A stretch of 64,000 nucleotides of DNA from an uncultured Gammaproteobacteria bacterium. GTDB lineage: Bacteria; Pseudomonadota; Gammaproteobacteria; Ga0077536. Positions 1,790 to 63,355 of the stretch are shown one piece after another. Each line of letters opens with the position of its first letter. Within the stretch, counting starts at the first letter, position 1. A model generated the notes under the pieces. That model ran no database searches. It saw only the letters and a program-made list of their open reading frames with translations, and was not told where the DNA came from. The stretch is taken from contig CAXBJY010000008.1 of assembly GCA_963976285.1 (NCBI GenBank), positions 14,414 to 78,413 on the forward strand. The letters run 5' to 3'. Made by a program: the position numbers and the translations under genes.

Positions 1790-2635
1790 ATGAACGACTT
1801 ACTCGACACCCTGCAGACGCTGGCGACGAGCCCGCATGCGGTCGCGATCATCCGCGCCTGCGCGATGGCCGGCTTCGGCCTGCTGCTCGCCCGCCTCGGC
1901 AGCAAGGCACTCGAACGCATCTTCGTGACGCACCTCGACACCCACCGGGCGATGCTCGTGCGCCGCGGGGCTTATTTCACCATCCTTGCGCTGTTTCTCG
2001 TTTCCGCCCTGCACCAGCTCGGATTCAACTTCAGCGTGCTGCTCGGCGCCGCCGGCATCGTCTCGGTCGCGATCGGCTTCGCCTCGCAAACCTCGGCCTC
2101 GAACCTGATCAGCGGCCTGTTCCTGATCGGCGAACAACCGTTCCGTGTCGGCGACGTGATAAAGATCGGGGATACCACCGGGGAAGTACTGAGCATCGAT
2201 TTGCTCTCGGTGAAACTGCGCACGTTCGACAACCTGTTCGTACGGCTGCCGAACGAGCAGTTGATCAAGTCACAGGTGACGACCCTGACCCGGTTTCCGA
2301 TCCGGCGTTACGATTTGCAAATCGGGGTCGCCTACAAGGAAGACCTCGCGCGCGTAAGCGACGTGCTCATGGAGGTCGCCGATCGCAATCCCGCATGCCT
2401 CGAAGAGCCGAAACCGCTGTTCATTTTCCAGGGCTTCTCCGATTCCGCCCTCGGCATACAGTTTTCCGTCTGGGCCACACGCGCGAACTATCTCCTGTTG
2501 CGCAACACGATGTCCGAACAAATCAAGGCCGCGTTCGACGAGGCCGGGATCGAAATTCCGTTTCCGCACCGTTCGCTGTATGCCGGCAGTGCGACGGAAC
2601 CATTTCCGGTGCGCATAATCGATAGCAGCGACTGA
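1790..2635 (+). CDS. mscS: small-conductance mechanosensitive channel (MscS family)
   Basis: Met 38 of track ORF 1679..2635. MNDLLDTLQTLA...TM helices...GDVIKIGDTTGEVLSIDLLSVKLRTFDNLFVRLPNEQL..VTTLTRFPIRRYDLQIGVAY = MscS beta-domain signature. Confidence 0.85.
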   Translation: MNDLLDTLQTLATSPHAVAIIRACAMAGFGLLLARLGSKALERIFVTHLDTHRAMLVRRGAYFTILALFLVSALHQLGFNFSVLLGAAGIVSVAIGFASQTSASNLISGLFLIGEQPFRVGDVIKIGDTTGEVLSIDLLSVKLRTFDNLFVRLPNEQLIKSQVTTLTRFPIRRYDLQIGVAYKEDLARVSDVLMEVADRNPACLEEPKPLFIFQGFSDSALGIQFSVWATRANYLLLRNTMSEQIKAAFDEAGIEIPFPHRSLYAGSATEPFPVRIIDSSD

Positions 2636-2833
2636 CTCACGCGGCGCCGTGTCGGTTCACCGCGGCCCGCGCGGAACGCGGCGGTAACACCGCGGCGCGA
2701 ACCGGAACCGACGAAATTCCCGCTTGTTTTCATGCCCTCGCGCCGGCCACCGGGAGGCGTGGCCGCGGCGCGCGGAAATTTACCCGCGCCGGTTCAAACA
2801 AGCGTATAACAACGCTGACAGGAGGATACCGTC

Positions 2834-3664
2834 ATGGACAACGAAGGCGCGGGTCTCGACCCCTTGTTCGTCACTTTCGACCAGCTCATGACCATGCTCG
2901 TCGACTACCTGCCAACGCTTGCGTCGGCCGGCGCGATGCTCATGGCCGGGTTCGCGATCGCGTGGGTACTCAAGGTTTTCGTGCTGCGCCTGAGCGCCGC
3001 GATCTCCTCGCTGTTCTCACGCACTGCGGGCGCCGGGCAAACCCGTCACGTGCGCTTGCCGTGGCCGCTGTCGGTGATCGCCGCGAACCTGATTTTCGGC
3101 CTCACCGTGATCTTCTTCCTCGCCGTCAGCGCGCGCATCCTCGGGCTGGCCGGGGTTGCGGACTGGATCGAAGCGGCCGCGGCGTACCTGCCGATCCTGC
3201 TCGTTGCCGCCGCGATCGTGCTCGGCGGCTACATCGCCGCCTCGCTCGCCCGCGACAGTATTACGCGCTATAACGAGCGCGCGACGACGCTGGCGAATCT
3301 CGTGTTCGCGCTGATCAACGCGATAGCCGGGCTGGCCGCGCTGCGCCACCTCGGCATCGATCTCGTACTCGTTCGCGCCTTGGTGATCATCATTGCCGCG
3401 GCGGTCTTCGGTTCGATGGCATTTGCTTTCGCGACCGGCGCGAGCGGTTCGCTCGCGAATATCATCGCCGCCTACTACGTGCGTCGGGTGTACCGGCAGG
3501 GACAACGCGTACGTATCGCGGGGCTCGAAGGCGAAATCCTCGAAATCACCCCGACGGCCGTCGTCATCGACACACCGCTCGGTCGCGCGATGATACCGGC
3601 GACGAAATTCAACCAGGAATCCTCGATACTGCTCGGACGCGAGGAGGTCGACGATGCCGCGTGA
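2834..3664 (+). CDS. mechanosensitive ion channel family protein (MscS-like, 276 aa)
   Basis: Strong SD (GGAGGA) 7 nt upstream of ATG. Multi-TM N-terminus and C-terminal motif QGQRVRIAGLEGEILEITPTAVVIDTPLGRAMIPATKFNQES typical of the MscS-like beta domain. Confidence 0.75.
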   Translation: MDNEGAGLDPLFVTFDQLMTMLVDYLPTLASAGAMLMAGFAIAWVLKVFVLRLSAAISSLFSRTAGAGQTRHVRLPWPLSVIAANLIFGLTVIFFLAVSARILGLAGVADWIEAAAAYLPILLVAAAIVLGGYIAASLARDSITRYNERATTLANLVFALINAIAGLAALRHLGIDLVLVRALVIIIAAAVFGSMAFAFATGASGSLANIIAAYYVRRVYRQGQRVRIAGLEGEILEITPTAVVIDTPLGRAMIPATKFNQESSILLGREEVDDAA

Positions 3665-4481
3665 TACCGTAATCCACTACCTCAAACACCATCCGCGCGA
3701 TGCCCTGCGCGTACTCGAGGCCGCGCGGGCGGAAGAACTGCACGCGTTTATCGACTCGCTGGGTTCCGAGACGAAGGCGAACGTACTCGGCTACCTGCTG
3801 CCCCACACGGCTGCCGGCTATATCGCACGCGTCGGCGCGGACCGCGCCGCGGAAGTCGTGAGCCAGTTGCGCAGCGCGACGGCAGCGCGGGTGCTCGCCG
3901 CGGTCACGCAGGGCCTGCGGCGGGACATCCTCGAACAGCTACCGCTGGAAAAGCGCACGAACATCCGCCACTTGTTGCGCTACCCGGACGACAGCGTCGG
4001 CGCGCTCATGCTCACCTCGACGCTCGCCTGCCGCGTGGACGCGAACGTCAGGCGCGCGAAACAACTCGTGCGCCGGTTCTCGCAGGTCGAGCTGCCGATG
4101 ATGGTGGTCGTCGACGACGACATGCGGCCCGTCGGTCTCGTCTCGGTGAGCAATCTGCTGCGCGCCCGCGAACGCGACCCCATCGATACGCATATGCGTT
4201 TTGTCCCGGCGCGCCTGCGCGCCCATGCGGAAGTGCGCACCGTGCTCGCGCTGCCGGTATGGGACACCGAAGACTACGTGCCGGTGGTCGAAACCGACGA
4301 ACGCTATGTCGGCCTGCTGCCGAAGGCGAGCCTGCACGGACACGCACTCGCGACCCGCGGTACGACGGAGAACTCCGAGGATTTCGCCACGACGGTCCTC
4401 GACGTCGCTGATTTGTTCTGGCGCCCCGCGGCGGAAACCCTCGCACGTGCGGCATCGACGAACTCCGGAGAGCACAAATGA
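3654..4481 (+). CDS. soluble MgtE N-terminal domain + CBS-pair protein (no TM domain)
   Basis: 275-aa ORF with MgtE_N-like helical region followed by two CBS-like segments (…VGALMLTST…VVVDDDMRPVGLVSVSNLL / …VPVVETDERYVGLLPKASL). 11-nt overlap with upstream gene; ATGA overlap with downstream mgtE. Confidence 0.65.
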   Translation: MPRDTVIHYLKHHPRDALRVLEAARAEELHAFIDSLGSETKANVLGYLLPHTAAGYIARVGADRAAEVVSQLRSATAARVLAAVTQGLRRDILEQLPLEKRTNIRHLLRYPDDSVGALMLTSTLACRVDANVRRAKQLVRRFSQVELPMMVVVDDDMRPVGLVSVSNLLRARERDPIDTHMRFVPARLRAHAEVRTVLALPVWDTEDYVPVVETDERYVGLLPKASLHGHALATRGTTENSEDFATTVLDVADLFWRPAAETLARAASTNSGEHK

Positions 4482-5803
4482 GTACGCAAACCGGCGGCGC
4501 GCTCGATTCCGCGCTCGAACGCGACCTGTTCACCCGCCACCCGCTCGAAGCGGCGGGACTGCTCGAAAAAATGCCGGCCTCGGCGGTCGCCGCGATCTTC
4601 GCCGAGCACGATGCGCGAACACTCGCCCCGCTCGTCGAATCGCTGTCGCCGGCGATGCTGCCCCCGGTGTTCGTGAAGCTGCAGGAGGGGCTCGTCGCCG
4701 AGACGATCGATCGCATGGCCCCGGCGCGGGTTGCGGGCATCCTGCGGGTGCTCCCGGCCGAACTGCGCGAACGGCTGCGCCAGCGGCTCGATGCCCAGTT
4801 GAAAGCCGACGTCGATCTCGTCCTCAGCTGTCCGCCGGATACGGCCGGAGCGGTCATGGACCCGCGCGTGATCTTCCTCCGGCGCACGCAACGGGTTGCC
4901 GAGGCGCTCGCGCGCCTGCGCGAAGAGCGGCATCACCGCCGCTACGTGCGCTCGCAACGGATCCTGCTCGTCGTCGATGAATCCGCACGCCTCGAAGGCA
5001 TCGTCGCGATCCAGGATCTGGCGCTTGCCGATCCCGATGATCCGGTCGGCGACTACATGCAGGCGGCGCCGGCGTTCGCGCCGCTGACCGCGACCACGGA
5101 GGAAATGGTCGACCTGCTCACCCGCCACGCGCTGTCGAGCCTGCCGGTCGTCGACAACGAAGGCCACCTCGTCGGCGTCGTGCGCTATGAACAACTCGTC
5201 GCCGCGGCCCAGGAAAACGCGAGCGTCGACCTGCAGACGATGTTCGGTGCGAGCCGCGACGAGAAAGCGTTGTCGAAACCCGGCTTCGCGGTGAGAAAAC
5301 GTTTGCCGTGGCTGCAGATCAACCTCGTCACGGCGTTTCTTGCCGCGGCCGTCGTCGGCTTGTTCGAGGACACGATTGCCCGCTACACGGCGCTCGCGAT
5401 CCTGTTGCCGGTGGTCGCCGGCCAGTCCGGAAACACAGGCGCCCAGGCACTCGCGGTTGTGATCCGGGGCCTCGCCTTACGGGAAATTTCGAGCGCGCAC
5501 TGGCCGCGCGTCGTGCTGAAGGAGACGCTCGTCGCGGCCATGAACGGGGTTGCCGTGGCGATGTCGACGTCGCTCGCGGTGTATATCTGGAGCCGCTCGC
5601 TCGGCCTGACCGCGGTGATCGGTCTCGCGATGGTCATCTCGATGTCGATCGCCGGCACCGCGGGCGCCGGTATCCCGCTGTTGCTGAACAAGCTGGGGCA
5701 GGACCCGGCGCAGTCGTCATCGATCATCCTGACCACGGTGACCGACGTCGCGGGCTTCTTCAGCTTCCTCGGCATCGCGACCCTGTTCATTTCGATGTTG
5801 TAG
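4478..5803 (+). CDS. mgtE: magnesium transporter MgtE (N-domain, CBS pair, 5-TM pore domain)
   Basis: 441 aa. …LVVDESARLEGIVAIQDL…VVDNEGHLVGVVRYEQL (CBS pair) followed by LPVVAGQSGNTGAQALAVVIRGL and C-terminal TM helices, the canonical MgtE layout. Confidence 0.85.
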   Translation: MSTQTGGALDSALERDLFTRHPLEAAGLLEKMPASAVAAIFAEHDARTLAPLVESLSPAMLPPVFVKLQEGLVAETIDRMAPARVAGILRVLPAELRERLRQRLDAQLKADVDLVLSCPPDTAGAVMDPRVIFLRRTQRVAEALARLREERHHRRYVRSQRILLVVDESARLEGIVAIQDLALADPDDPVGDYMQAAPAFAPLTATTEEMVDLLTRHALSSLPVVDNEGHLVGVVRYEQLVAAAQENASVDLQTMFGASRDEKALSKPGFAVRKRLPWLQINLVTAFLAAAVVGLFEDTIARYTALAILLPVVAGQSGNTGAQALAVVIRGLALREISSAHWPRVVLKETLVAAMNGVAVAMSTSLAVYIWSRSLGLTAVIGLAMVISMSIAGTAGAGIPLLLNKLGQDPAQSSSIILTTVTDVAGFFSFLGIATLFISML

Positions 5804-5821
5804 GCGCCGCGGCCGCGCGGA

Positions 5822-7084
5822 TCAGCGCGCGCCGTCGACGCTGCTGCCGGGTTGCGACACGGCGTCCATGACCCGCAGTGCGCGGCGCATCGCGAATTCG
5901 GCCGCGGCCGGTGAGCGCACGACGCAGTACGTGCTCTGACCACGGATCCCGAGGCAGGTGTTCGTGGCATCACGTTGCGACAGATCCGTGATCCCGATTT
6001 GCCAGACAACGTCCCGCGCCCAGCGCGGTACGAGCATCGGCCGACCGCCGCGCAGCAGGCCACGGTGCTCGCGCATAAACTGCCGCGCGCGTGCGAGCGC
6101 CGCGCGGCGGGTCATGTCGACCCCGCCGAGCAGGATGCTCCAGCGCCGCACCCGGAAGTACTCGCGCCCGGGTTCGGGATTGATGCATTCCGTCGCGATC
6201 ATCCGCGCATTGAGCGCTTCGTCGCGCCCTTGAGCGAGCGGGTCGGGAAATGCGTCGAGCGTGTACGCGGGTGCGTAGTGACCCGCGAACCCGGCGTTCA
6301 TCAGACGCACCATGCGCGCATCGCGCGCGGCCGCGCCGGCTTCGCCGAGGACGACCCCGAGCAGATGCCGCCCGTTACGCGCGGCCGTCGCGACGAGGTT
6401 GAATCCGGCGCGACACGTAAACCCGGTCTTCACCCCGCTCGCCCCCGCATACGCGCGCACGAAGTTGTTGTGGGTCTCGATCCGCCGGCCGGCGTGCGTG
6501 AACGCCGTTGCCGCGAAGCGCGCGTACTCGCGCGGAAAGTCAGCGTGCAAGGCGCGGGTCAGCAGCGCGAGATCGCGGGCCGACGTCACCTGTCCGGGAT
6601 CCGGCAGCCCGCTCGCGTTCGTGTACCGGGTCGCGGTGAGCCCGAGCTTGCCGGCAACGGCGTTCATGCGGGCGACAAACGCCGGTTCCGTCCCGGCGAC
6701 CGTTTCGGCGATCGCCACCGCGACATCGTTGCCCGAGGTGACGATGAGGCCGCTCAGCGCGGCATCGAGCGTCAGGGTCGCGCCGGCTTTCAGACCGAGC
6801 CTGACCGGTGCCGCGGCGGCCGCGGCCGGGGAAATCGTCAGCGCATCGTCGCCGGCCAACTGCCCGTCACGCACGGCCGCGAACGCGACATACAGCGTCA
6901 TCAGTTTCGTCAGCGACGCCGGTCGCGCAGGCCGCAGCGCGCCGTCGGCGTGCAGTACCGCACCGCTGTCCATGTCCACGAGCAGACTCGCACGCGCCGC
7001 CGCGGCCGGATCCGATCCGAGCGCCGCGGCGGCGAAAACGATCAGGTGCACGGCACCGGATCGCAGGCAGGCAGTCAGGGACAT
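5822..7084 (-). CDS. D-alanyl-D-alanine carboxypeptidase (serine-type, PBP5/6-like S11) with C-terminal SPOR-like extension
   Basis: Track ORF 5822..7201 trimmed to Met 40 (MSLTACLRSGAVHLIVFAAAALG signal peptide). SLTKLMT (SxxK), SGN and KTG motifs present. C-terminal ~90 aa (…RRWSILLGGVDMTRRAALARARQF…WQIGITDL…) resembles a SPOR peptidoglycan-binding domain. Confidence 0.75.
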   Translation of the reverse strand: MSLTACLRSGAVHLIVFAAAALGSDPAAAARASLLVDMDSGAVLHADGALRPARPASLTKLMTLYVAFAAVRDGQLAGDDALTISPAAAAAAPVRLGLKAGATLTLDAALSGLIVTSGNDVAVAIAETVAGTEPAFVARMNAVAGKLGLTATRYTNASGLPDPGQVTSARDLALLTRALHADFPREYARFAATAFTHAGRRIETHNNFVRAYAGASGVKTGFTCRAGFNLVATAARNGRHLLGVVLGEAGAAARDARMVRLMNAGFAGHYAPAYTLDAFPDPLAQGRDEALNARMIATECINPEPGREYFRVRRWSILLGGVDMTRRAALARARQFMREHRGLLRGGRPMLVPRWARDVVWQIGITDLSQRDATNTCLGIRGQSTYCVVRSPAAAEFAMRRALRVMDAVSQPGSSVDGAR

Positions 7085-7447: not shown

Positions 7448-9250
7448 ATGTCCGACTGGAAGCGCGGCGCGCGGGTCGTGTTGATCGCGTTCGCCGTGCT
7501 GATCTTGCAGGGTTGCAGCCTGTTGCCGTGGTCCGCGGAAAAAAAAGCCGCCGCGGCCGCGGCGGAGGCCGCGCCGCAAATAAGCGCTGAAATTACCGGC
7601 ATCGACGGTGAGCTCGCGGCGAACGTACTCGCTCACCTGTCCGTTACGCACAAGCCGTGCACGATTTCCCGCGCTTATCTCTCGGTGTTCGAACAGCGCT
7701 CGCAGGACGAAGCGATCGAAGCGCTGCGGGCGCTCGGGTATTACGCGCCGGAAATCGACGTCAGCATGGAATCCGCGGACGCCTGCCCGCACGCACGGAT
7801 TCACGTCATTCCGGGGCCGCCGGTGCTGTTCGGCAAGATCAACATCGACATCCGCGGTGCCGCCGCCGGGGATCCGGATTTTCAGCAGCGCATCGAGGAC
7901 CTCGGACTCGAACCCGGGCAGCCACTGAACCACGAGAAGTACACCGGGGCGAAGCGACGCATCGAATCCGTCGCGCTCGAACTCGGGTATCTCGAGGGGA
8001 TCTTCGTGAAAAATCTGTTGCGGGTGAACCCGGAGCAGCGGATCGCGGATGTCACGCTCGCATTCGACAGCGGGCCACGCTACCGGATCGGTGACATCTC
8101 AATCGTGCAGGATCCCGATTTTCTCGACGAGGCGCTGATCCGCCGCTTCCTCGACAACGCGGCCGGCGAACCTTACAACGCCACGCGGGTTGCCGGATTC
8201 CACACGGCGTTAGCGCAAGGCGCGTATTTCAACCGCATCGACGTCCGTCCGAAACTGTCGGAAACGGTCGACGATACGATCCCCGTCGTCGTGACGCTGA
8301 CCCCGAAAGACCGCCACAAGTTTACGACCGGGGTCGGGGCCTCCACCGACGAAGGGATCCGCGGCCGGGCGTCGTACAAGAACCGGCGGGTCAACCGTTA
8401 TGGCCACCAGTTTGATGTCGCCGCGAATGCGTCGCTGATCGAGCAACGGTTTTCCGTCGGTTACAGCCTGCCGCGCGAACACCCGGTCGATGAATGGTTG
8501 ACGCTGCAGACCGGGGTCAGGCGCACGGACGTCGACACGTTCGATGCGATCGAGGCGCAGGTCGTATTGTCGGAAACGAAACGCCGTCCCCGGGGCTGGA
8601 TGGAAACCCGTTTTCTCGAATGGAACCGGTCGGATTTTGATGTCTCGTCGACGAACGATGCGACGGTTTTTCTCGCTCCGGGAGCTAAATGGCGCAAGAG
8701 CGCATCCAACCACGATCTGTTCCCGACCCGCGGTTACAGCATTGAATTCGAGGTGAAGGGCGCTGCCGACGCGCTGTTTTCAACCACGAGTTTCGCGCGC
8801 TCGAAGCTGCGCCTGTCGTCGGTCCTCGGACTCACGGAGCGCAGCCGCCTGCTGCTGCGCGGTCGCTTCGGCGCGTTGTGGGTTGACGAATTCGATCAAC
8901 TGCCGCCCTCGGAACGCTTCTTTGCCGGTGGTGACAACAGTATTCGTGGCTACGATATCGATTCGCTCGGTCCGGTCGACTCGAGCGGCGACGTCATCGG
9001 CGGCACCCAACTCGCCATCATCAGCGCCGAGGTCGACTATTACTTCACGGAGCGCTGGGGCATGGCCGCGTTCGTCGACTCCGGTAACGCGTTCGGTGGC
9101 GACGGCAGTGCCACGGGACTGCAGACCGGGATTGGCCTCGGCGTGCGCTGGCGTTCACCGATCGGTTCGATTCGGGTGGACATCGCGCACCCGCTCGACG
9201 ATACGTCGAACGACTTCCGCCTGCACCTGCGGATCGGACCGGATCTGTGA
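7448..9250 (+). CDS. tamA: translocation and assembly module outer-membrane protein TamA (Omp85 family)
   Basis: In-frame ATG within track ORF 5975..9250, downstream of the antisense overlap with the carboxypeptidase gene. MSDWKRGARVVLIAFAVLILQGC (signal/lipobox), POTRA-like repeats, and C-terminal beta-barrel ending …GSIRVDIAHPLDDTSNDFRLHLRIGPDL. Confidence 0.8.
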   Translation: MSDWKRGARVVLIAFAVLILQGCSLLPWSAEKKAAAAAAEAAPQISAEITGIDGELAANVLAHLSVTHKPCTISRAYLSVFEQRSQDEAIEALRALGYYAPEIDVSMESADACPHARIHVIPGPPVLFGKINIDIRGAAAGDPDFQQRIEDLGLEPGQPLNHEKYTGAKRRIESVALELGYLEGIFVKNLLRVNPEQRIADVTLAFDSGPRYRIGDISIVQDPDFLDEALIRRFLDNAAGEPYNATRVAGFHTALAQGAYFNRIDVRPKLSETVDDTIPVVVTLTPKDRHKFTTGVGASTDEGIRGRASYKNRRVNRYGHQFDVAANASLIEQRFSVGYSLPREHPVDEWLTLQTGVRRTDVDTFDAIEAQVVLSETKRRPRGWMETRFLEWNRSDFDVSSTNDATVFLAPGAKWRKSASNHDLFPTRGYSIEFEVKGAADALFSTTSFARSKLRLSSVLGLTERSRLLLRGRFGALWVDEFDQLPPSERFFAGGDNSIRGYDIDSLGPVDSSGDVIGGTQLAIISAEVDYYFTERWGMAAFVDSGNAFGGDGSATGLQTGIGLGVRWRSPIGSIRVDIAHPLDDTSNDFRLHLRIGPDL

Positions 9251-53213: not shown

Positions 53214-54566
53214 TTAACGCTCACGAAAACCCTCGTCGCGGTAGCGCAATAACGGCGCGGCGAGGAATTCGATCAGGCGGCGGCGACCGAGTTTGATCTC
53301 CACCGTCACCGCCATCCCCGGCGCGAGATTCGCGACCCGGTCGGCGGTCTCGATCGTCGTGCGCTCGAGGCTCACTTGCGCCGGATACACGAGCCCCTGC
53401 TTCTCATCCGCGATCGCATCGTGCGCGACATGTGTAATGCGGCCGTCGATCGTGCCGTATTGCGTGAACGGGAACGTCTCGACCTTGATCTCCGCGTGCT
53501 GGCCCGCGCGCACGAAGCCGGCGTCGCGGTTCGTGACGAACGCCTCGACGACGAGCGCGCCATCGAGCGGCACGAGCAACATCAGTTGTTCCGCCGGGGT
53601 GACGACTCCGCCGATCGTATGCACGGAGAGCTGGTGCACCGTGGCCGCCTCCGGCGCGCGCAGAACGCGCTCCCGGATCTGCATTTCCGCCTTGCCGATC
53701 TCGGGTTCGATCGCGGCGAGTTCCGTTGCGAGCGTTGCCCGCGATTCGATCAGCCGCGAGCGTTCGCCGGCGGCGAGCGCGCGCAAACGCCTTAGCAAAC
53801 CGGCATGCGCGGCATCGAGCGCGGCGAGGCGCGCGCCGACGATACCGCGCTCGCGCTCGGTTTCGAGTCGCGGGATCTCGAGTTCAAACCAGCTCGCGCG
53901 CGACGCGAGCGAACGCGCTTCGAGTTGTGCCAGCGCGTTCGCGCGTTCCGTGAGCAGCGGCAAGGTCGCGTCGAGCATGGCAAGACGCCGTTCGCTGGCG
54001 AGACGTTCCGCGCGGTTCTCCGCGGCCGCGTCCTCGAGTGCCGCGCGCTCGGCGTAATGCGCTTCGAGCTGGCTGTCGATGCGGCGCCGGATCGCCATCG
54101 GCGTGGCCGCGATCGCCACGTTCAGTGGATGCCCGGGCGCGCGATCGAGGTAAGCGGCCGCGGTCGGGAACGCCGCGAACGCGCGTAACTGCAATTCCAG
54201 TGCGCGCAGTTCCGCGGCCATCGCATCGCGCGCAACGCGCAGGCGGCGCAAGTCGGCGCGAGATTTCTCGTCGTCGAGCTGGATCAGCGGATCGCCGGCG
54301 GCGACCGTCTCGCCTTCGCGCACATGGATCGCACTGACCACCCCGGCCTCGAGCGGCTGCACCGTCTTCACCCTGCCGGTGGGGACGATCCGGCCTTGCG
54401 CGACGGCCACGACATCCACCCGCCCGAGCACGGACCAGCCGAGCGCGAACGCAAACAACGTCATCACGCTCCACAGGATCGCGCGCGACGCCGGCAGCGG
54501 CGGCGTGTGTTCCACTTCGAGCACGGCCGGCAGAAACGCGCAAGACTCACGCGAGCGGGACATCAC
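53214..54566 (-). CDS. HlyD family type I secretion periplasmic adaptor subunit
   Basis: N-terminal TM, long coiled-coil (…RALELQLRAFAAF…), C-terminal beta-barrel/lipoyl-like …VTVEIKLGRRRLIEFL…. Confidence 0.8.
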   Translation of the reverse strand: MMSRSRESCAFLPAVLEVEHTPPLPASRAILWSVMTLFAFALGWSVLGRVDVVAVAQGRIVPTGRVKTVQPLEAGVVSAIHVREGETVAAGDPLIQLDDEKSRADLRRLRVARDAMAAELRALELQLRAFAAFPTAAAYLDRAPGHPLNVAIAATPMAIRRRIDSQLEAHYAERAALEDAAAENRAERLASERRLAMLDATLPLLTERANALAQLEARSLASRASWFELEIPRLETERERGIVGARLAALDAAHAGLLRRLRALAAGERSRLIESRATLATELAAIEPEIGKAEMQIRERVLRAPEAATVHQLSVHTIGGVVTPAEQLMLLVPLDGALVVEAFVTNRDAGFVRAGQHAEIKVETFPFTQYGTIDGRITHVAHDAIADEKQGLVYPAQVSLERTTIETADRVANLAPGMAVTVEIKLGRRRLIEFLAAPLLRYRDEGFRER

Positions 54567-54594
54567 TCGCCCCCTGGATGCGCGGCGTGAAGCA

Positions 54595-56733
54595 TCACCC
54601 TGCGGGCTCGGCCTGCAGGCGCACGAGTTCAGCGTAATAACCGTCCCGCGACACGAGCTCCGCGTGACTGCCGCACTCGACGATACGACCGTCGTCGATC
54701 ACGATGATCCGGTTCGCGGCGCGCACGCTGCTGAGGCGGTGCGCGATCAGGAACACGGTGCGACCGCCGCAGATCCGGCGCAGGTTACGCCGGATCACGG
54801 CTTCCGATTCGACGTCGAGCGCACTCGTCGCTTCGTCGAAAATGAGGATCCGCGGATCCGTGATCAGCGCCCGCGCGATCGCGATCCGCTGGCGTTGTCC
54901 GCCGGAGAGATTGCTGCCCTGTTCGCCGACGATCGTGTCGTAACCGGCCGGCAGATCGAGAATGAAGTCGTGGGCGCCGGCGAGTTCCGCCACGTGCATG
55001 ATCCGTTCGAGCGGCAGGGTCGGATCCGTGATCGCGATATTCTCGCGCACGCTGCGGTTGAACAGCCGGTTCTCCTGCAGCACCACCCCGATGCGACGGC
55101 GCAACCACGCGCTGTCGACGAGCGCGAGATCGATCCCGTCCACGAGCACACGCCCCGCGCCCGGTACGTACAGGCGCTGGATCAGTTTCGCGAACGAACT
55201 CTTGCCCGAGCCCGAACGGCCGACGATGCCGATCATCTCGCCCGGCGCGACATCGAGCGTGATGTCGCGCAACACGTCCGGCCCGTCCGGGCGATAGCGG
55301 AACGTGACCGCCTCGAACGTCACCCGCCCGCGAACGTCCGGCAGCGAAGCGCGGCTCGACACGGCGGCGGGTTCCGCGGGCGCGTTCAGAATGTCGCCGA
55401 GGCGACGCAATGAAATCGCCGCTTGCTGGAAGTCCTGCCACAACTGCACGAGGCGCAGGATCGGTCCGGACACGCGCGCCGCGATCATATTGAACGCGAC
55501 GAGTTGACCCACCGTAAGCGCGCCGTCGATCACGAGCCGCGCGCCGAACCACAGGATCCCGAGGATCATCAGCTTGTTGGTCAAACCCGCGATCTGGGCC
55601 GCCACGTTCGACAGGTTCGTCGCGCGGAAACTCGCGCCCACGTAGGCCGCGAGGCGTTCTTCGAAGCGCCGTTGCGTGGCCGGCTCGATCGCGCCGGCCT
55701 TCAGCGTTTCGATGCCGCTGACGGCTTCGACGAGATAGGCCTGGTTGTCGGCCCCGCGATCGAATTTCTCGTTCAGCCGATGACGCAACACCGGGGTCAC
55801 GAACAGCGCGAGCGCGATGTAGCACGGCAACGTGGCCACAACGACGATGGTCAACATCGGGCTGTAGGCGAACAACACGGCGAAGAACACGAGCGTGAAC
55901 GTGACATCAACAATGAGCGTGAGCGCGGAACCGGTGATGAAATTGCGCAACGTTTCGAGTTCGCGCACCCGCGCGACGACATCGCCCACCCGGCGCGCCT
56001 CGAAATACGCGAGCGGCAGGCGCAACAAGTGCCGGAACAGCTCGGCCCCGAGCGCGACGTCGATCCGGTTCGCCGTGTGCGAGAACACGTACGCGCGCAA
56101 CCCGCCGAGCCCGGCATCGAACAGCGACACGACGAGCAGCCCGAACGCGAGCAGATCGAGCGTGGTGAGACTGCGGTGCACGAGTACCTTGTCGACGACG
56201 ACCTGGAAGAACAGCGGCGTGACGAGCGCGAACAACTGCAGAAAGAACGACGCGAGCAGCACTTCCGAAAAATAGCGCCGGTACTTCAGGATAAACGGCG
56301 CGAACCAGGCGAGGTTGAACTCGCGCCGCCCGCTGGCTATCCCGGCGCGGCGGGTGAGCAGGATCAGCTCACCGTTCCACTGCGACTCGAACTCGGATTT
56401 CGAGATCTCCCGCGGCGCCGGATCGCACGGATCCCGGATCAGCAACCTGTCGCCGCCGATCGCCGCGAGCGCAACGAAGCGATCGTCGTCCAGGCCAACG
56501 ATGCACGGACACACCGCGTCGTGGAGACGCCGGCGGGCCGCACGCATCCGGCGCGAGCGCAAGCCGAGCCAGCGCGCCGCGCGCACGATGTCGGCACTTG
56601 TGAAGCAGCGATCATGCGCGGCGAACTCGTGCTTCAGTTCATGCGGATTCGCGCGCACTTCGAGGAAACGCGCGATCAGCACGAGACTCATCAATCCGGT
56701 ATCCGCATCCTGCGGAGTTGCGTGTGCCTCCAT
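54595..56733 (-). CDS. type I secretion system permease/ATPase (HlyB-like) with N-terminal C39-like domain lacking the catalytic Cys (CLD type)
   Basis: Met 45 of track ORF (MEAHATPQDADTGLMSLVLIARF…). Six-TM ABC exporter core; Walker A GRSGSGKSS, signature LSGGQRQRIAIARAL, Walker B ILIFDEATSALD. Confidence 0.8.
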   Translation of the reverse strand: MEAHATPQDADTGLMSLVLIARFLEVRANPHELKHEFAAHDRCFTSADIVRAARWLGLRSRRMRAARRRLHDAVCPCIVGLDDDRFVALAAIGGDRLLIRDPCDPAPREISKSEFESQWNGELILLTRRAGIASGRREFNLAWFAPFILKYRRYFSEVLLASFFLQLFALVTPLFFQVVVDKVLVHRSLTTLDLLAFGLLVVSLFDAGLGGLRAYVFSHTANRIDVALGAELFRHLLRLPLAYFEARRVGDVVARVRELETLRNFITGSALTLIVDVTFTLVFFAVLFAYSPMLTIVVVATLPCYIALALFVTPVLRHRLNEKFDRGADNQAYLVEAVSGIETLKAGAIEPATQRRFEERLAAYVGASFRATNLSNVAAQIAGLTNKLMILGILWFGARLVIDGALTVGQLVAFNMIAARVSGPILRLVQLWQDFQQAAISLRRLGDILNAPAEPAAVSSRASLPDVRGRVTFEAVTFRYRPDGPDVLRDITLDVAPGEMIGIVGRSGSGKSSFAKLIQRLYVPGAGRVLVDGIDLALVDSAWLRRRIGVVLQENRLFNRSVRENIAITDPTLPLERIMHVAELAGAHDFILDLPAGYDTIVGEQGSNLSGGQRQRIAIARALITDPRILIFDEATSALDVESEAVIRRNLRRICGGRTVFLIAHRLSSVRAANRIIVIDDGRIVECGSHAELVSRDGYYAELVRLQAEPAG

Positions 56734-57136
56734 GGCCGATCCGTGATCCTTGCGTGCTGTTTGCAACGGGCGATCGTTGCGTGATCGCGCGCAACCCGCG
56801 TTCGAGCGGGCTGCAGCTTGCGTGGGATTGAATCTAGCGCGCCCCGTTGCGCGACGCCCAGACACGAGGACGCGTAATGATCGATGCGCGAAGCACGGTA
56901 ATTAACTGAACACCCGACGGAATCACCCGGGCTCCCGTCGCGCCGGTACTGCCGCGCCGAACGCACAAGGACCAATTCCCGGCACCGGCCGTCGCAAACC
57001 CGCGCGCAATGATTGCCAGCGGGACCCGCACCGCCGTTCGCGGCACCCGGCAACCCGACGCGGCCAAACCGGCGCCCGTAGTTCCCGTAACACAAATTTT
57101 GTATGCTGCCAGCCCCATTCGCATTGAGGCGAACCG

Positions 57137-58183: not shown

Positions 58184-58604
58184 CTCGGTTTACTTTCGTT
58201 GCGGGTGCTGCGAATTGGGACGATACGGATAGGCGCGGCGCGCCTGCATGCGGCGCTCGGCTTCGTTGAGCAAACTGCGGAGATACTTGCAGACGAAACC
58301 GCTCTGTGGGGCGGCTTTCATGAGCCGGGTTTTATCAGATGCTTGTTACCGGACTATGGATTAACGCGACGCAACAGCATCCCGCTGATCCCCTCCGAAG
58401 CTTCCCGAAACGCTGCATTGCAATATTTTCTGGCTCTTCAACTGCGACTTCTTGCAGATGAGAAATCCTGCTATCTTCTGTGCCAGTAGCGTTCCGGGAT
58501 TGACGTGATATGCAGATTCTACATAGAGCAGCAGTACGTCGTTCTGCGTATTTCGAGTATGCGTAATTTCTCTAAACCGCTGTTAGGCGGTAGGAGCAGA
58601 AGTA

Positions 58605-58844
58605 TTGTCGCGTAATAATCGTTACCTCCCGATACTAATGGGCTTTGGATCTTTTGCGCTGGCCATATGGCTTGCTATGGGTCATGTATCGTGGTGGAAA
58701 GCTATTCTCGGCGCCCTACTGCTTATGTTTGGTTGGGGTTCATTAAGAACGGGAATTAGCGCTTCGGATGAGGAAATTGAAGAATTGACCTCGCCGAAAC
58801 CTTTATCTGAAAGTACGAGGAAAAAATTCGAAGAACGATTTTGA
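58605..58844 (+). CDS. small membrane protein (79 aa, 2 predicted TM helices, charged C-terminal tail)
   Basis: TTG start with AGGAG SD 8 nt upstream (internal ATG at 58638 lacks SD). MSRNNRYLPILMGFGSFALAIWLAMGHVSWWKAILGALLLMFGWGSL…. Confidence 0.5.
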   Translation: MSRNNRYLPILMGFGSFALAIWLAMGHVSWWKAILGALLLMFGWGSLRTGISASDEEIEELTSPKPLSESTRKKFEERF

Positions 58845-58860
58845 AACGAATGCAGCAGAG

Positions 58861-59151
58861 ATGAATCCAGCATTATTGATAACAGCGGCCGGCCCTATTC
58901 TTGGGGCAATCGGTCTGTATGGGGGAATCGACTGGCTATTTTGGTCAGGAATAGTCATAGCACTACTAGCGTTGTTTCTGAATTTGGCTTCCGGAATATT
59001 GAAAGCACCTGTACTGCCCGGACTGTGCGTAGTCGTGGGTGCGGCGGCGATAACCCCCTGGTATCACGGTGCCGGAGTCGGGCTTCTAGTTTGGACGGCG
59101 TTGGAAACCGCCGGAGAAATTGTGGGCCTTCGCAAAGAAGGCAGACTATAA
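58861..59151 (+). CDS. small membrane protein (96 aa, 3 predicted TM helices)
   Basis: MNPALLITAAGPILGAIGLYGGIDWLFWSGIVIALLALFLNLASGIL…; 16-nt gap from the upstream small TM gene (same cassette). Confidence 0.5.
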   Translation: MNPALLITAAGPILGAIGLYGGIDWLFWSGIVIALLALFLNLASGILKAPVLPGLCVVVGAAAITPWYHGAGVGLLVWTALETAGEIVGLRKEGRL

Positions 59152-59158
59152 ACGTGCC

Positions 59159-59268
59159 GCCTAAAAAACGCTGCAGTCCAACCCATTACAGTGCGCTTTT
59201 CCAGCGTACCTTCGGATTTTCCCGCTTCCAAAGCGCACTGCAACGGGCTGCATCGCGCGGCGTTAGAT
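59159..59268. repeat. attC-like imperfect palindromic element 1 (GCCTAAA…CAGTGCGCTTT…AAAGCGCACTG…GTTAGAT)
   Basis: Perfect 11-bp core inverted repeat 59189-59199/59230-59240. Outer arms GCCTAAAAAACGCTGCAG vs CTGCATCGCGCGGCGTTAGAT also partly complementary; ends in the GTTAGAT core 14 nt before the next ATG. Confidence 0.45.
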
Positions 59269-59281
59269 TACGCGCACACCT

Positions 59282-61042
59282 ATGATTCTGCCTGACGTGA
59301 CACGCGTCCTTGAATCCTTTACGGCGTCGGGCGAAGCTGAGGCTATCTCTATAACAGGCGATTGGGGCGTAGGGAAAACGTACTACTGGAGGTCATTCGT
59401 TGGTAGCTTGAGTCAAAGAAACGACCTTCAATTCACAAAGTATTCGTATGTATCTTTATTCGGGCTGTCATCCCTGCCCGAAGTACGTGACGCGATATTT
59501 GACAATGCAGTTCCTTCCGAAGAGATTTCGGCTGAGCCGTCGCTCTCTTCTTTCTTCGGAAATCTAGCTGCGATTACCGATTCCGGAGGCGCGCTTTTCG
59601 CAATCAAGGGCGTTTTCTCAAGAGCTCGGAAGCACTTAGGAACTATAGAGAAGGTGCCCGCAATTAGCAGGGTTTCTCCATTTCTACGAGCCGCGTCCTA
59701 CTTCGCCATATCGAACTATTTGGTCTGCCTAGATGATGTTGAACGCAAAGGTGAAGGTCTCTCCGGCCGCGACCTCTATGGATTAATTTCCCACCTTAAA
59801 GAGCGGCGGAATTGCAAGGTTGTGATAATCCTAAATTCCGATTCACTAGATGAATCGGAGCGTAGCGAGTATGACCAGTTTCGGGAAAAAGTATTTGATA
59901 TCGAGATGTCGTTCCGTCCTACCAAAGCAGACTGCATCAGCTTGGTTTTTGGAGATGGCTCAGATGTATCGGTGAAAGCCATCCGCTACTGCGGCGAACT
60001 TGGAATTAACAACATTCGGGTCCTGAAACGGATCCATCGAAATTTGAACTATCTGCTCCCGTTCACGGAAGGTCTAGACCCCCTACTAGAAGAACAGATC
60101 TTCCATTCAACGGTGTTACTAACATGGAGTTACAACAGCCGACAAGCCGACGCACCGGATTACGATTTCGTGAAGAAACTTGGCGTTGCGGATATGTTTT
60201 CGCTAGACGTCGAAACAACCGAGGACGACACCGAAGAAAAGGAATGGCGAGACCGACTTTGGAACTACAAATACACGTCATCGGATGAGATTGATTTAGA
60301 AATCTGTAGATTCCTCGAAAATGGGTACTTAGATAGCGATCTGTTTCGCACCGTGCTTAACCAAAAAAACAAAGAACTTACCCAGACTCATACCAGGAAT
60401 AAGTTTGAGGCGGCATGGCGTTTATTTCACGATTCGTTTAATGATAATGAAGCGGAGTTTATTGAAGAGCTGTCGAGGGCGTTTCATGAAAGCGCGAGAT
60501 GGATTAGCCGCGCTAATGTCGACGCCGCCGTCCGGATATTGCGCGACCTAGACCGATCTGAGCTAGCAGACAAATTCATCGCCCATTGGATCGACGTGCA
60601 ATCTAGAGAAAACGCCTCATCTCTAACAGCAGAGCCAGATCATTTTGATCGGGAAATAAGAGACGAATCGTTGCGTGTCGCGATCGAGAACGCTGCCGAT
60701 CAAAACATGCCGATCCCGACTCTCGATGAGATTGTTCCTAGGATTGCCGGTAATGAAGGTTGGGGACAAAAAGATGAGGAGTTCTTGTCAACTGCGTCCG
60801 TTGACGATTTCTACTATTACTTCAAAAGGACAGAAGATCGAAATCTGACGACTTACGTAAGGACATGTCTGAAATTTGGCCAGTTCCTCAATCCAACTGG
60901 GCCGATGCGAACAATATCGGGGAAAGCGATAGAAGCGCTCAGGCGGATAGAAAGTGAATCCAAGCTCAATGAACTGCGCATTCGTAAATTCGGGTTAGGC
61001 ACCAAACCGGATGACGCCCGCGTCGACAAACAATTGGATTAA
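59282..61042 (+). CDS. KAP-family P-loop NTPase (586 aa)
   Basis: N-terminal Walker A ITGDWGVGKTYYW and Walker B LVCLDDVER, characteristic of KAP NTPases; large helical C-terminal region. Confidence 0.65.
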   Translation: MILPDVTRVLESFTASGEAEAISITGDWGVGKTYYWRSFVGSLSQRNDLQFTKYSYVSLFGLSSLPEVRDAIFDNAVPSEEISAEPSLSSFFGNLAAITDSGGALFAIKGVFSRARKHLGTIEKVPAISRVSPFLRAASYFAISNYLVCLDDVERKGEGLSGRDLYGLISHLKERRNCKVVIILNSDSLDESERSEYDQFREKVFDIEMSFRPTKADCISLVFGDGSDVSVKAIRYCGELGINNIRVLKRIHRNLNYLLPFTEGLDPLLEEQIFHSTVLLTWSYNSRQADAPDYDFVKKLGVADMFSLDVETTEDDTEEKEWRDRLWNYKYTSSDEIDLEICRFLENGYLDSDLFRTVLNQKNKELTQTHTRNKFEAAWRLFHDSFNDNEAEFIEELSRAFHESARWISRANVDAAVRILRDLDRSELADKFIAHWIDVQSRENASSLTAEPDHFDREIRDESLRVAIENAADQNMPIPTLDEIVPRIAGNEGWGQKDEEFLSTASVDDFYYYFKRTEDRNLTTYVRTCLKFGQFLNPTGPMRTISGKAIEALRRIESESKLNELRIRKFGLGTKPDDARVDKQLD

Positions 61043-61134
61043 GCGGTCGTGTTTCAGCGCGCTTCCTTCCGCCGGATCCGCATTTTCACCTACACGAAAC
61101 GCGCTGAAACACGCCGATTATCCAAGCGTTAAGT
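61028..61134. repeat. attC-like imperfect palindromic element 2 (arms TTGGATTAAGCGGTCGTGTTTCAGCGCGC / GCGCGCTGAAACACGCCGATTATCCAAGC, ending in GTTAAGT)
   Basis: Perfect 14-bp core inverted repeat 61048-61061/61100-61113 extending to ~28 bp with bulges. Left arm overlaps the KAP gene stop codon. Inner GCGGATCCGC palindrome. GTTAAGT core at 61128-61134. Confidence 0.5.
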
Positions 61135-61152: not shown

Positions 61153-62250
61153 ATGCGAGTTCTAGTTTTTGACACGAACGCCTTTGTCCAAGACTTGGGG
61201 CTAGAGGGTCATGCATTTCAGCTGCTGCTCTTGCATTTAAATGTCGTGACTGACCTAGTCGCGTTTCCGATTGTGGTACTACAAGAAACCTCGAATAAGT
61301 ATGAGGAGTTCCTGCGCAAGGTCGTCTCTGATGCGAAGAAAGCGTCTGAGCGATTCGAAAGACTTACTGGAACGGCACTAGAGCCGCCCGACCCAAGAAT
61401 AGTTGTTGAATCTATTTCTCAGTACCGCGCAAAGCTCATGTCGAAGTTTGGCGGCCTCGCTGAAGCATTCCCCTATCCGTCTATAGATCACGAATCTGTC
61501 GTTCAAAGGGCCATCCTTCGAAGGCGTCCTTTTCAAGATTCCGGGGCCGGGTACAGAGACACGATAATCTGGGAGTCGATTCTAGAAATTGCCGACAAGC
61601 CGGACATCGATTCCATTATTTTTATTACTAACAATTCGAAAGACTTCCTGGCCGAAGACCGGCTGGCACCAGACCTTATAGAAGACTTGAGAGAGCGGGG
61701 GCACCCAGACTCCTTAATTCGCACTTACGGGACGGTGAAAGCCCTCGTTGATGCTGAGATCCTGCCAAGCATCGAACAATTTAGTGAAGTAGCAACGCTC
61801 ATAGAAGAACGCAATATTCCCGGCATTGATTTCGACGCTTGGTTGCAAGATGCCTTGTTCGATTGCGTGCCGGCGGCCGATGCAGCGCGGGCGATAGCAG
61901 GGATAGCCCCCGGTGATGCCGATACAGAGCTATCTGAAATCTATGAAATCAAAGAATTCAAGGTAGAGCATGGCTATCCGCTCCCAAACGACGAGCACTA
62001 TCTAATTGTGTCCGTATTCGCAGGCGTTGGCGTGAACGTTTGCGCCAGCTGGGTGCAATACGGTGATTCGCTCGCGGTCACCGAATTGTTTGACTGTGAG
62101 GGAACGGGCCAACCAGCGCCTTACGCGTGTGTATATGCCGGAGAAGTTATTTGGATCACTTTATCCCTCGTGGTTCATTCATTAGTTCCGTTTACCTGGT
62201 CTGTTGAAATCATTTCCGTTGAGTCGACAGGAAGCGAGTCGGAAACCTAA
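61153..62250 (+). CDS. PIN-like nuclease domain protein with ~185-aa C-terminal domain of unknown function (365 aa)
   Basis: MRVLVFDTNAFVQD (first PIN acidic residue), …VVLQETSNKY… (Glu), …IIFITNNSKDF… (distal Asp pair) within the first ~180 aa. Confidence 0.55.
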   Translation: MRVLVFDTNAFVQDLGLEGHAFQLLLLHLNVVTDLVAFPIVVLQETSNKYEEFLRKVVSDAKKASERFERLTGTALEPPDPRIVVESISQYRAKLMSKFGGLAEAFPYPSIDHESVVQRAILRRRPFQDSGAGYRDTIIWESILEIADKPDIDSIIFITNNSKDFLAEDRLAPDLIEDLRERGHPDSLIRTYGTVKALVDAEILPSIEQFSEVATLIEERNIPGIDFDAWLQDALFDCVPAADAARAIAGIAPGDADTELSEIYEIKEFKVEHGYPLPNDEHYLIVSVFAGVGVNVCASWVQYGDSLAVTELFDCEGTGQPAPYACVYAGEVIWITLSLVVHSLVPFTWSVEIISVESTGSESET

Positions 62251-62261
62251 TAAATGGCTCA

Positions 62262-62343
62262 ATATGCCGCGTTACAGCGCGCTTCCCTCAGGCGGATCCG
62301 TATTTTCGCCTCCCCAAAGCGCGCCGAAATACGCAGGTTATCT
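62262..62343. repeat. attC-like imperfect palindromic element 3 (…CGCGTTACAGCGCGCTTCCCTCAGGCGGATCCGTATTTTCGCC…GCGCGCCGAAATACGCAG-GTTATCT)
   Basis: About 75% identical to element 2 over the central region (CAGCGCGCTTCC…GGCGGATCCG…ATTTTC…GCGCGC…GAAA). Ends with GTTATCT (imperfect core) 15 nt before the next start. Confidence 0.45.
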
Positions 62344-62357
62344 GAGCCTTAGAACTC

Positions 62358-63134
62358 TTGGCGGAAATTATGGCGCAATCAAACCGGAAGCAATACGGCG
62401 AAGCACAGAACGTCGCGCTGACTTCACAGGTCGGCGGCGTTTGCCCGCGCTGCGACGAGCCGCTTTTCTACAAGAAAATGGGCAAAAGTTTTAAAGCGTA
62501 TGAGGTAGCGCACATCTACCCCCTAAACCCCACCCCCGAAGAAATCGAACACCTTAAGGACGAGCCTAGACTTAGCCAAGACGTGAATGATGAAGATAAC
62601 CTGATTCCTCTCTGCAAGAGCTGTCATGGCAAGTTCGATAAGCCTCGGACAGCTGAAGAGTATCGGCAACTCGTCGAACTCAAGAAGCGCTACATCGCGC
62701 GTTCAGGCCAAGAGATATTGTGGTCTTCGCATCATCTTGAGTCTGAGATCCGCAGTGTCATCGAGGCGCTTTATGAGGAACACTTCATCGGGGCTTCAAC
62801 CGCTGTAATTGAGTACGAGCCAGCTACAATCGATGAAAAGGTCGATGACTCGATAACGAGACCTACCGTCCGAAAGATCAAGAATAACGTCAGTGATTAC
62901 TTCACGTTAATCAAGACTCATTTTTCTGAAATTGACAAGACCAATCCGAATTTTTCAGACATAGTGTCGCTACAGGTCAAGACATACTTTCTGAAGCAGC
63001 AACAGTTGGGGGTAGATAAACAAGCGATCTTTGACAATTTAGTTTCCTGGGTGCGTGTAAAAACTAAACCCCGAAGTATTGATGCTGCCGAGATATTGGT
63101 TTCGTTTTTCATCCAGAATTGCGAGGTGTTTTGA
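62358..63134 (+). CDS. HNH-family nuclease domain protein (258 aa) with C-terminal helical domain
   Basis: TTG start (internal ATG at 62370). CPRCDEP…AHIYPLNP…NLIPLCKSCHGKFDK = CxxC…H…N…CxxCH HNH zinc-finger nuclease signature. Confidence 0.65.
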   Translation: MAEIMAQSNRKQYGEAQNVALTSQVGGVCPRCDEPLFYKKMGKSFKAYEVAHIYPLNPTPEEIEHLKDEPRLSQDVNDEDNLIPLCKSCHGKFDKPRTAEEYRQLVELKKRYIARSGQEILWSSHHLESEIRSVIEALYEEHFIGASTAVIEYEPATIDEKVDDSITRPTVRKIKNNVSDYFTLIKTHFSEIDKTNPNFSDIVSLQVKTYFLKQQQLGVDKQAIFDNLVSWVRVKTKPRSIDAAEILVSFFIQNCEVF

Positions 63135-63355
63135 TGATTGTTCCCACCAAGTTCACCTCCCTAGACAAGAGCGCCTTAGGCAAATCACCAATCGTGTTGC
63201 AAGCTTTCGATCGTCCGGTTTCGGCTCACAGCTTATACAAACTCGTAGACCGCCAATTCGAGGACGTTGGCGAATTCTTGTTTACGCTTGATGTTCTGTA
63301 TGTCCTGGGATCGATTCGCCTCGACACAGCTACAGGGATGGTAGAAAAATGCTGA
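63134..63355 (+). CDS. 73-aa hypothetical protein, translationally coupled between the HNH and ATPase genes
   Basis: ATG overlaps the TGA of the HNH gene (TGATG). Its own stop overlaps the ATPase start by 7 nt. MIVPTKFTSLDKSALGKSPIVLQAFDRPVSAHSLYKLVDRQFEDVGEFLFTLDVLYVLGSIRLDTATGMVEKC. Confidence 0.45.
   Translation: MIVPTKFTSLDKSALGKSPIVLQAFDRPVSAHSLYKLVDRQFEDVGEFLFTLDVLYVLGSIRLDTATGMVEKC

Follow-up and report, generated by a model that had tools for sequence, protein, structure and literature searches.

The 64,000-nucleotide (nt) stretch analysed here (the window; contig CAXBJY010000008.1) contains one complete integron-type gene cassette in a chromosomal array of an uncultured marine gammaproteobacterium. 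The only gene of this cassette, at 59282–61042 on the forward strand, encodes a KAP-like P-loop nucleoside triphosphatase (NTPase) of 586 amino acids (a.a.), and the gene has been acquired horizontally. We consider it probable, with moderate confidence, that the protein is an autonomous anti-phage (anti-mobile-element) NTPase.

The cassette and its array

The cassette, its gene and the sites around them are as follows:

59263–61128, + strand: single-gene cassette, 1866 bp, from the TT of the R' box GTTAGAT to the G of the next R' box, GTTAAGT
59282–61042, + strand: NTPase gene, ATG start, 586 a.a., soluble KAP-like (PDC-S49-type) P-loop NTPase
59159–59268, + strand: attC-like site 1, 3' end of the preceding cassette, with R''-like GCCTAAAAAAC and R' GTTAGAT at 59262–59268
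about 61037–61134, + strand: attC-like site 2, 3' end of the NTPase cassette, with R''-like GGATTAAGC and R' GTTAAGT at 61128–61134
about 62256–62354: attC-like site 3, an imperfect palindrome (fold z = -4.2) with the degenerate R' box CTTAGAA
58190–58588, + strand: leader, about 400 bp, low in GC, conserved in the related genome L088 and ending in the attI-like box GTTAGGC (58582–58588)

The repeats are spaced 1866 nt apart, and the bounds of the cassette are counted from the G|TT crossover positions. Only one open reading frame (ORF), the NTPase gene, lies between these bounds; its ATG comes 13 nt after the upstream R' box ends (19 nt past the crossover), and the ATG of the next ORF is 18 nt past the end of GTTAAGT. 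At the 3' end of the gene the R''-like GGATTAAGC of site 2 overlaps the stop codon TAA (61040–61042).

Attention had been drawn to attC-like palindromes on both sides of the gene by a preliminary description of this DNA, and they proved to be alignable repeats with strong hairpins (z = -3.4 and -4.4). Site 1 is an inverted repeat with 28-nt arms and a bottom-strand folding energy of -32.6 kcal/mol (z = -3.37); site 2 has 18-nt arms that are 94% complementary, and its bottom strand folds at -26.1 kcal/mol (z = -4.44; none of the shuffles folded equally well). The z-scores were computed against 200 dinucleotide shuffles. Sites 1, 2 and 3 are mutually alignable imperfect palindromes, and all three bottom strands form long imperfect hairpins that at most one shuffle in 200 could equal. 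Both flanking sites thus have the hairpin and the R' box (GTTRRRY) of an integron attC. The R'' boxes of the window sites (GCCTAAAAAAC, GGATTAAGC and GGCTCAATA) are degenerate relative to RYYYAAC, and neither the strict nor the relaxed motif scanner called them. The strict scanner (RYYYAAC...GTTRRRY plus a hairpin) gave 11 matches versus seven in reversed controls and missed obvious sites, and the relaxed one was unspecific genome-wide (213 matches versus 170 in the control), so only its positional signal was used and sites were checked by eye. The same repeat family is present in L088, where repeats alignable with site 1 have canonical boxes (GCCTAAC...GTTAGGC), which argues that the attC-like sites of the window are not chance palindromes.

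L088 is a relative with a 5.8-Mb contig (ENA ERZ25071330 ctg580774) and ∼83% nucleotide identity in the flanking genes. Its blastn homology to the 148-kb Tara scaffold L001, which covers the whole island, is continuous through the core genes and the leader and ends at L001 position 9305, which is window position 58586; at base level the two sequences match through CGCTGTTAG(G/C)C and are unrelated beyond. The variable cassettes of the window start immediately after the GTTAGGC box, and downstream of that box L088 carries different genes with the same attC family. This is the pattern seen where an attI-type junction precedes a cassette array that varies between strains, and sedentary chromosomal integrons typically have such a homogeneous attC family. 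No NTPase homologue was found in L088 past the junction. Since L088 is syntenic up to GTTAGGC and then holds other cassettes without a copy of the gene, the NTPase gene was acquired horizontally, as the preliminary description had proposed. The composition changes as well: GC drops from ∼65% to ∼50% at about 58190, and the GC content of the NTPase gene is 47.6% versus 65.8% for the rest of the window. In two more distant relatives (L089 and L090) the whole island is absent. A gene with this composition that is missing from L088 and found in few genomes (see below) is not part of a ubiquitous or core gene set.

One candidate site was discarded. The segment 58480–58595 was considered as an attC, but no attC-type hairpin is found there (z = +0.43); the L088 comparison led us to reread it as the attI-like junction. 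No integrase remnant was detected in the leader (58190–58588), which could be an attI/Pc platform left behind by loss of intI.

We found no integrase in the window (best tblastn hit of an IntI1 probe at E = 0.31) and none among the called genes of L001 and L088; the same probe picks up IntI proteins of 43–47% identity in five of the loci that carry homologues of the NTPase gene. Because there is no adjacent integrase, the array is CALIN-like (an attC cluster without an integron integrase), and it is possibly fossil. It is highly improbable, however, that the gene is merely a decaying relic, inactive in a recombination-dead array. Such a relic would fit the lack of an adjacent integrase, the degenerate R'' boxes, the third R' box (CTTAGAA) and the lack of promoter-like sites in the array (none found versus 3.8 expected, in a promoter/terminator scan that was uninformative), but the 586-codon ORF is intact and keeps every family-invariant residue, its structural model is confident, and an identical protein is encoded on five contigs from several marine metagenome samples, mostly of Tara Oceans. 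An Rfam search of the window gave no matches.

Family membership and architecture of the protein

The 586-a.a. ORF carries the two Walker motifs that had been read from it before. The parts of the protein are:

59357–59380: Walker A, G26-D-W-G-V-G-K-T33
59717–59746: Walker B, Y146-L-V-C-L-D-D-V-E-R155
59282–59917, + strand: N-terminal ASCE/AAA+-like NTPase core, a.a. 1–212, with both Walker motifs, candidate sensor-1 residue N185 and candidate arginine finger R201
a.a. 63–145: non-membrane insert of about 85 a.a. between Walker A and Walker B
59918–60067, + strand: helical lid, a.a. 213–262, with the invariant motif LGIxNIR; N244, and R246 as candidate sensor 2
60068–60997, + strand: all-alpha C-terminal domain, a.a. 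263–572, with conserved G348, W379, F386, D461, N563 and R566

The earlier assignment to the KAP family holds for most relatives of the protein and only marginally for the protein itself. Among Pfam families, KAP_NTPase (PF07693) matches the query best, at 18.9 bits (cut-off 20) and over a.a. 17–59 (the P-loop region) only. The same family is matched by 46 out of 60 relatives at E ≤ 0.001, and eight relatives that were tested separately score 24.8–38.6 bits with model coverage up to positions 12–278 of 293, i.e. through Walker B and further. Judged from these profile matches, the membership of the query is peripheral and the family appears to lie at the edge of the KAP clade. No profile search places the protein in another family: NB-ARC reaches 11.4 bits for the query (cut-off 23.5), the NB-ARC and NACHT matches of the relatives are also under the Pfam cut-offs, and a search of NCBIfam with the query gave nothing useful.

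The strongest library match is to PDC-S49, a single-gene candidate of PADLOC, whose phage-defence candidates are derived from defence-island association. The model PDLC05031 matches a.a. 21–402 of the query at E = 1.6e-21 (HMM positions 26–395 of 624, ∼59% coverage), PDLC05029 and PDLC05030 match it likewise, and all 60 relatives match PDC-S49 (best E = 4e-30). The window protein resembles PDC-S49 in length (the HMMs have 619–629 positions) and in being encoded by a single gene; PDC-S49 is itself a computational candidate only. As the match is limited to HMM positions 26–395, the C-terminal third may differ, and the protein possibly belongs to a sister subfamily.

The closest full-length homologues are just 37–40% identical to the query. 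A profile search of 1.84 billion cluster representatives found at least 2336 clusters (at 50% identity) with E ≤ 1e-30. The best 150 matches, of ∼550–600 a.a., all align end to end, indicating a fixed architecture without an additional fused domain.

The KAP signature reportedly defined by Aravind et al. in 2004 consists of a Walker A motif GxxGxGK[ST] and an acidic Walker B motif followed by an arginine (hhhhDDxxR type). The query has both, GDWGVGKT at a.a. 26–33 and LVCLDDVER at a.a. 147–155, and it has the alpha-helical region expected after the NTPase domain, as its models are all-helical over residues 213–568. Two or four transmembrane (TM) helices inserted in the P-loop domain are typical of many prokaryotic KAP proteins, though not universal. 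The query has no such helices (maximum KD19 of 1.19), and the hypothesis of a TM insert was rejected for the family, since none of the 60 members has a TM-grade segment in the insert between Walker A and Walker B: their highest-scoring hydrophobic windows never fall wholly inside the insert, the sole value ≥1.6 near it (1.60, in P0038) runs into the Walker B strand, and a single value of 1.87 lies elsewhere in the protein. Without TM helices in its insert, the protein is predicted to be cytoplasmic rather than membrane-anchored.

The AlphaFold2 model (pLDDT 90, pTM 0.79) divides into an ASCE alpha/beta core (residues 1–212), a helical lid (213–262) and an all-helical remainder (263–572). Across 60 sequences G26, G29, G31, K32, D151, D152 and R155 are invariant and E154 is nearly so (≥90%), and further invariant or near-invariant residues are N185, R201, E202, K203, N244, R246 (these last two invariant), G348 and W379. 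By its position at the end of strand 4 in the model, N185 would be sensor 1; R201, at the C-terminus of the helix that precedes strand 5, may be the AAA+ box VII arginine finger, and R246, at the start of a lid helix, may be sensor 2. Pairwise identity is lowest in the insert (21%), 43–46% in the NTPase core and ∼25% in the C-terminal domain, which is a probable recognition or scaffold surface. The preliminary description had suggested looking for an effector in this part, and no enzymatic or effector domain match was found in the C-terminal helical region.

The best structural matches are to ORC/Cdc6 initiators, followed by TnsC, MuB and RFC, with weak matches also to plant and human NLR structures. 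The likeness to ORC/Cdc6 AAA+ initiators is a structural resemblance, not family membership: identity is 10–15%, the window protein has no winged-helix domain, and Foldseek TM-scores are at most 0.28 over the full length.

Genomic contexts and the argument for defence

Eight of the best 80 loci hold the homologue as a single-gene integron cassette (L005, L009, L013, L016, L020, L024, L038 and L046), nine cassettes in total if the one of the window is counted. In the eight homologues an R' box such as GCGTTATGC lies 20–60 nt before the start codon (it is degenerate in L016), and an xCATAAC box lies at or just after the stop codon in seven; the exception is L038, whose contig ends right after the gene. 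The stop codon is embedded in the R'' box in cassette-borne homologues, as in the window gene. An attC-like match starts right after the stop at seven loci, versus about one expected from the match density. Five loci have integron integrases 43–47% identical to IntI1, and three of the cassette homologues are ∼1 kb from a divergent upstream IntI of 45–47% identity to IntI1. At L005 we observed a 399-a.a. Phage_integrase gene (5622–6821) adjoining a textbook attC array; the IntI1 probe missed it at E ≤ 1e-5, and it may be a divergent integron integrase.

The preliminary description saw no partner gene and called the protein stand-alone. Both points have held up: the cassette has one ORF, no neighbour is conserved across clades (conserved neighbours occur only within the Desulfuromonadales, i.e. 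clade-level synteny), and the occurrence of eight other homologues as single-gene integron cassettes supports the stand-alone organisation well.

A scan with a set of 15 sequences found relatives in 321 of ∼185 600 species-representative genomes, patchily distributed across phyla (Gamma-, Beta- and Deltaproteobacteria, cyanobacteria, Acidobacteria, Bacteroidota and Marinimicrobia). The functions of most integron cassettes are unknown and varied, and the conserved chromosomal position at some loci (e.g. in the Desulfuromonadales) would suit an ordinary cellular regulatory or signalling NTPase that has no role in genetic conflict and was captured by integrons by chance. This is distinctly unlikely, given that the family is so patchy and the gene is absent from the close relative L088, that it recurs on phages, phage-plasmids and integrons with neighbours rich in defence genes, and that it matches a family listed by PADLOC as a phage-defence candidate.

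Family members are encoded on 143 plasmids, mostly non-mobilisable Klebsiella and Escherichia coli plasmids of ∼110 kb that carry phage genes. There the gene is found in a variable slot flanked by a ParA-like ATPase gene and helicase/primase genes: 724 plasmid records share the flanks of the slot and only 22 retain the stretch with the NTPase gene, while near-identical plasmids (97% identity) hold DUF2971 or other genes in it. An example of the slot is in the E. coli plasmid NZ_CP031136.1 (69606–77287), from the ParA-like ATPase gene to the DnaB-helicase/primase genes, and SSU5-like phage-plasmids of E. coli, Klebsiella, Salmonella, Enterobacter and Citrobacter have such a variable cargo slot. 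As the KAP-like gene, DUF2971 or other genes interchange there, the slot may be a defence hotspot.

The location beside a DnaB-like helicase and a primase, together with the structural matches (ORC/Cdc6, then TnsC, MuB and RFC), would also suit a replication or maintenance ATPase of mobile elements, similar to an initiator or helicase loader, with the integron and chromosomal copies as stray cargo. We regard this as very unlikely. The slot is variable and most plasmids that share its flanks do without the gene; a replication factor would serve no purpose in a promoterless chromosomal cassette, an arrangement met eight or more times; and there is no winged-helix or other DNA-binding module past the lid, as the region after residue 210 is all helical.

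Temperate Burkholderia phages carry other copies close to their genome ends, with RelE and HNH genes next to them. At 55 diverse loci, the ORFs near the family member encode, among others, integrases, terminases, portal proteins, TraH and Uma2 and, by PADLOC at E ≤ 1e-10, DpdF, JetD, Dsr1, PsyrT, mad3, HNH and several PDC candidates; none of these is a recurrent partner across the 55 loci.

Sedentary integron arrays are known to hold toxin–antitoxin cassettes. The protein could accordingly serve as an addiction or stabilisation module, or as a competition factor that excludes rival plasmids or conjugative elements and not phages, which we consider unlikely while giving it some weight. The neighbouring PIN_12 and ABC-3C cassettes and the TraH and integrase genes at other loci would agree with such a role, and PifA, the founding KAP protein, is plasmid-borne (PMC13552941). 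However, an antitoxin-like partner is found in none of the nine cassettes, a protein of 586 a.a. whose NTPase is intact and whose sensor-like domain is conserved does not resemble a simple toxin, and superinfection exclusion would account at least equally well for its presence on prophages and phage-plasmids.

The reading that we favour, an NTPase that acts alone against phages, draws support from the genomic surroundings: in the window the gene adjoins a PIN_12 cassette and an ABC-3C system, and elsewhere the family is accessory cargo on phage-plasmids, at temperate phage ends and among defence genes. How such a protein would act can be outlined only tentatively, and the details may well be wrong. 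The C-terminal alpha-helical domain would act as the sensor for a protein or nucleoprotein complex of phage origin, and the AAA+-like core, by binding and hydrolysing nucleotide, would power an oligomerisation or remodelling step that stops phage replication. Residues put forward for this cycle are K32 (Walker A), D151, D152 and E154 (Walker B), N185 (putative sensor 1), R201 (putative arginine finger) and R246 (putative sensor 2). As the protein contains no nuclease, protease, TIR or pore-forming domain, the ATPase and its scaffold would themselves be the effector.

The family is like KAP proteins (PF07693; Kidins220/ARMS and PifA) in its Walker A (GxWGxGKT) and Walker B (hhhhDDxER type) motifs, its long insert between them, its alpha-helical C-terminal region and its sporadic, mobile-element-linked distribution, and differs from them in that the insert has no TM helices in any of 60 members. 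Single-gene proteins that combine a KAP domain with an uncharacterised C-terminus protect against phage and are not abortive, and their protection requires both Walker B and the C-terminal region (PMC13552941). One of the validated proteins, EF_KAP, is likewise a single polypeptide with a KAP-type NTPase followed by ∼320 a.a. without a known fold, but with two TM helices and a Walker B at D246/D247 it belongs to a different branch; identity with it was rejected because the position of Walker B and the TM content differ. The Enterococcus plasmid protein that does resemble the window family is another one: an unannotated 612-a.a. ORF (2504–4342 of locus L091, from the E. faecalis plasmid LR962627.1), a remote family member by hhalign (probability 99% over 443 columns), directly downstream of an ORF with a Fic motif (HPFREGNGR).

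Two further KAP-type NTPases act in phage defence. Tmn is membrane-anchored and synergises with Gabija; QatA is soluble, binds DNA and forms heptamers or octamers (PMC13279940), and by analogy it is a plausible model for the behaviour of the window protein. QatA works in a four-gene operon, though, and is dispensable for some phages, whereas the window protein has no partner gene. STAND/Avs proteins are organised on a similar plan, with a helical repeat sensor behind an N-terminal NTPase switch, and there are weak NB-ARC and NACHT cross-matches, which are below the Pfam thresholds; the window protein lacks a separate effector domain and is much shorter than Avs. As to the carrier, defence systems have been described before in integron cassettes (BRiCs in mobile integrons, and cassettes of sedentary chromosomal integrons), which the window cassette resembles as a compact attC-bounded defence-type gene near other conflict systems, except that its array has no adjacent integrase. 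The texts searched on integron defence cassettes make no mention of KAP, NTPase or P-loop.

Several observations weigh against a defence function or against parts of the proposal. A literature search found no publication on PDC-S49, a candidate system, and the record of other PDC candidates is mixed, with four out of eight giving protection (PMC12881386). The query is 1.1 bit under the Pfam cut-off for KAP, with a match in the P-loop region only, and validated KAP defence proteins have TM helices while this family has none and is not of the EF_KAP branch. No effector domain was found that would supply a killing or blocking step; the protein is acidic (pI 4.98), which does not favour extensive DNA binding. 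The enrichment of defence genes among the neighbours is qualitative and comes from crude ORF calls. Finally, present-day mobility of the cassette is doubtful, considering the degenerate R'' boxes at its flanking attC sites and the lack of a nearby integrase.

A bolder version, quite unlikely in our judgement, would make the family a new class of single-protein immunity in which the interference is itself the work of an ORC/Cdc6-like AAA+ core together with a helical domain not seen before. The family suggests it by being soluble, without a recognisable effector domain and uniformly ∼570 a.a. long. Such a protein might, for example, assemble in an ATP-dependent manner on a phage replication or packaging complex, an initiator or a helicase loader and stall its target, and it would need no activation of a nuclease, NADase or pore. 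If this holds, the repeated one-gene cassettes mark one of the smallest self-sufficient NTPase immune sensors.

For the more modest reading of an anti-phage NTPase, the cassette would demonstrate in nature that a KAP-like NTPase of the PDC-S49 type works on its own, because integron cassettes delimit functional units and one-gene cassettes of this family are met at least nine times. With no membrane anchor and no recognisable effector domain, the protein would be a simple model for how a KAP/AAA+-type switch stops a phage, and as the family is carried by ∼110-kb Klebsiella and E. coli phage-plasmids, the mechanism would matter for phage therapy and for the competition among mobile elements. 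Links to phage defence have already been made for both KAP NTPases and integron cassettes, so a defence function would not surprise specialists. The value lies in a clean, cassette-delimited and effector-less model of the large PDC-S49-type candidate family: a catalogued family in a known kind of carrier.

Neighbouring cassettes and other observations

On L001 the island reads, in order, two small ORFs, the NTPase gene, PIN_12, ABC-3C, CSD-DUF1294, an IS3 transposase, two small ORFs and then core genes. The first cassette of the array (58605–59151) has two small hydrophobic ORFs of 79 and 96 a.a. without a Pfam match. The cassette that follows the NTPase gene, between attC-like sites 2 and 3, has a single gene for a 365-a.a. 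PIN_12 (DUF4935) protein (61153–62250). Next to it is a complete ABC-3C conflict system, which extends from window position 62358 past 64000 to the equivalent of ∼64970 (L001 13089–15687). Its genes, assigned by Pfam, are:

62358–63134: HNH_2+CTD11 effector of ABC-3C
63131–63355: MC7 middle component of ABC-3C
from 63349: DUF2326 ABC ATPase of ABC-3C, 539 a.a. in L001

The three genes seem to make up a single cassette, and a palindrome directly follows the stop codon of the system (L001 15704–15764). The IS3-family transposase pair is in the array of one Tara scaffold (L002, 7980–9130) and absent from another (L003, ∼7750–7910), i.e. it is an insertion polymorphism within the population.

To the left of the island, on the reverse strand (53214–56865), are genes for an ABC exporter with a C39 peptidase and an AprE/HlyD-type partner, a bacteriocin-type export pair that the more distant relatives L089 and L090 do not have. 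Among the closest homologues of the NTPase, the Dyella/Rhodanobacter loci L007 and L010 share a conserved sequence (...AAGGACAAGAAGAGGTTGTAGGG) ∼100 nt upstream of the homologue, which hints at a clade-specific gene or regulatory element beside it.

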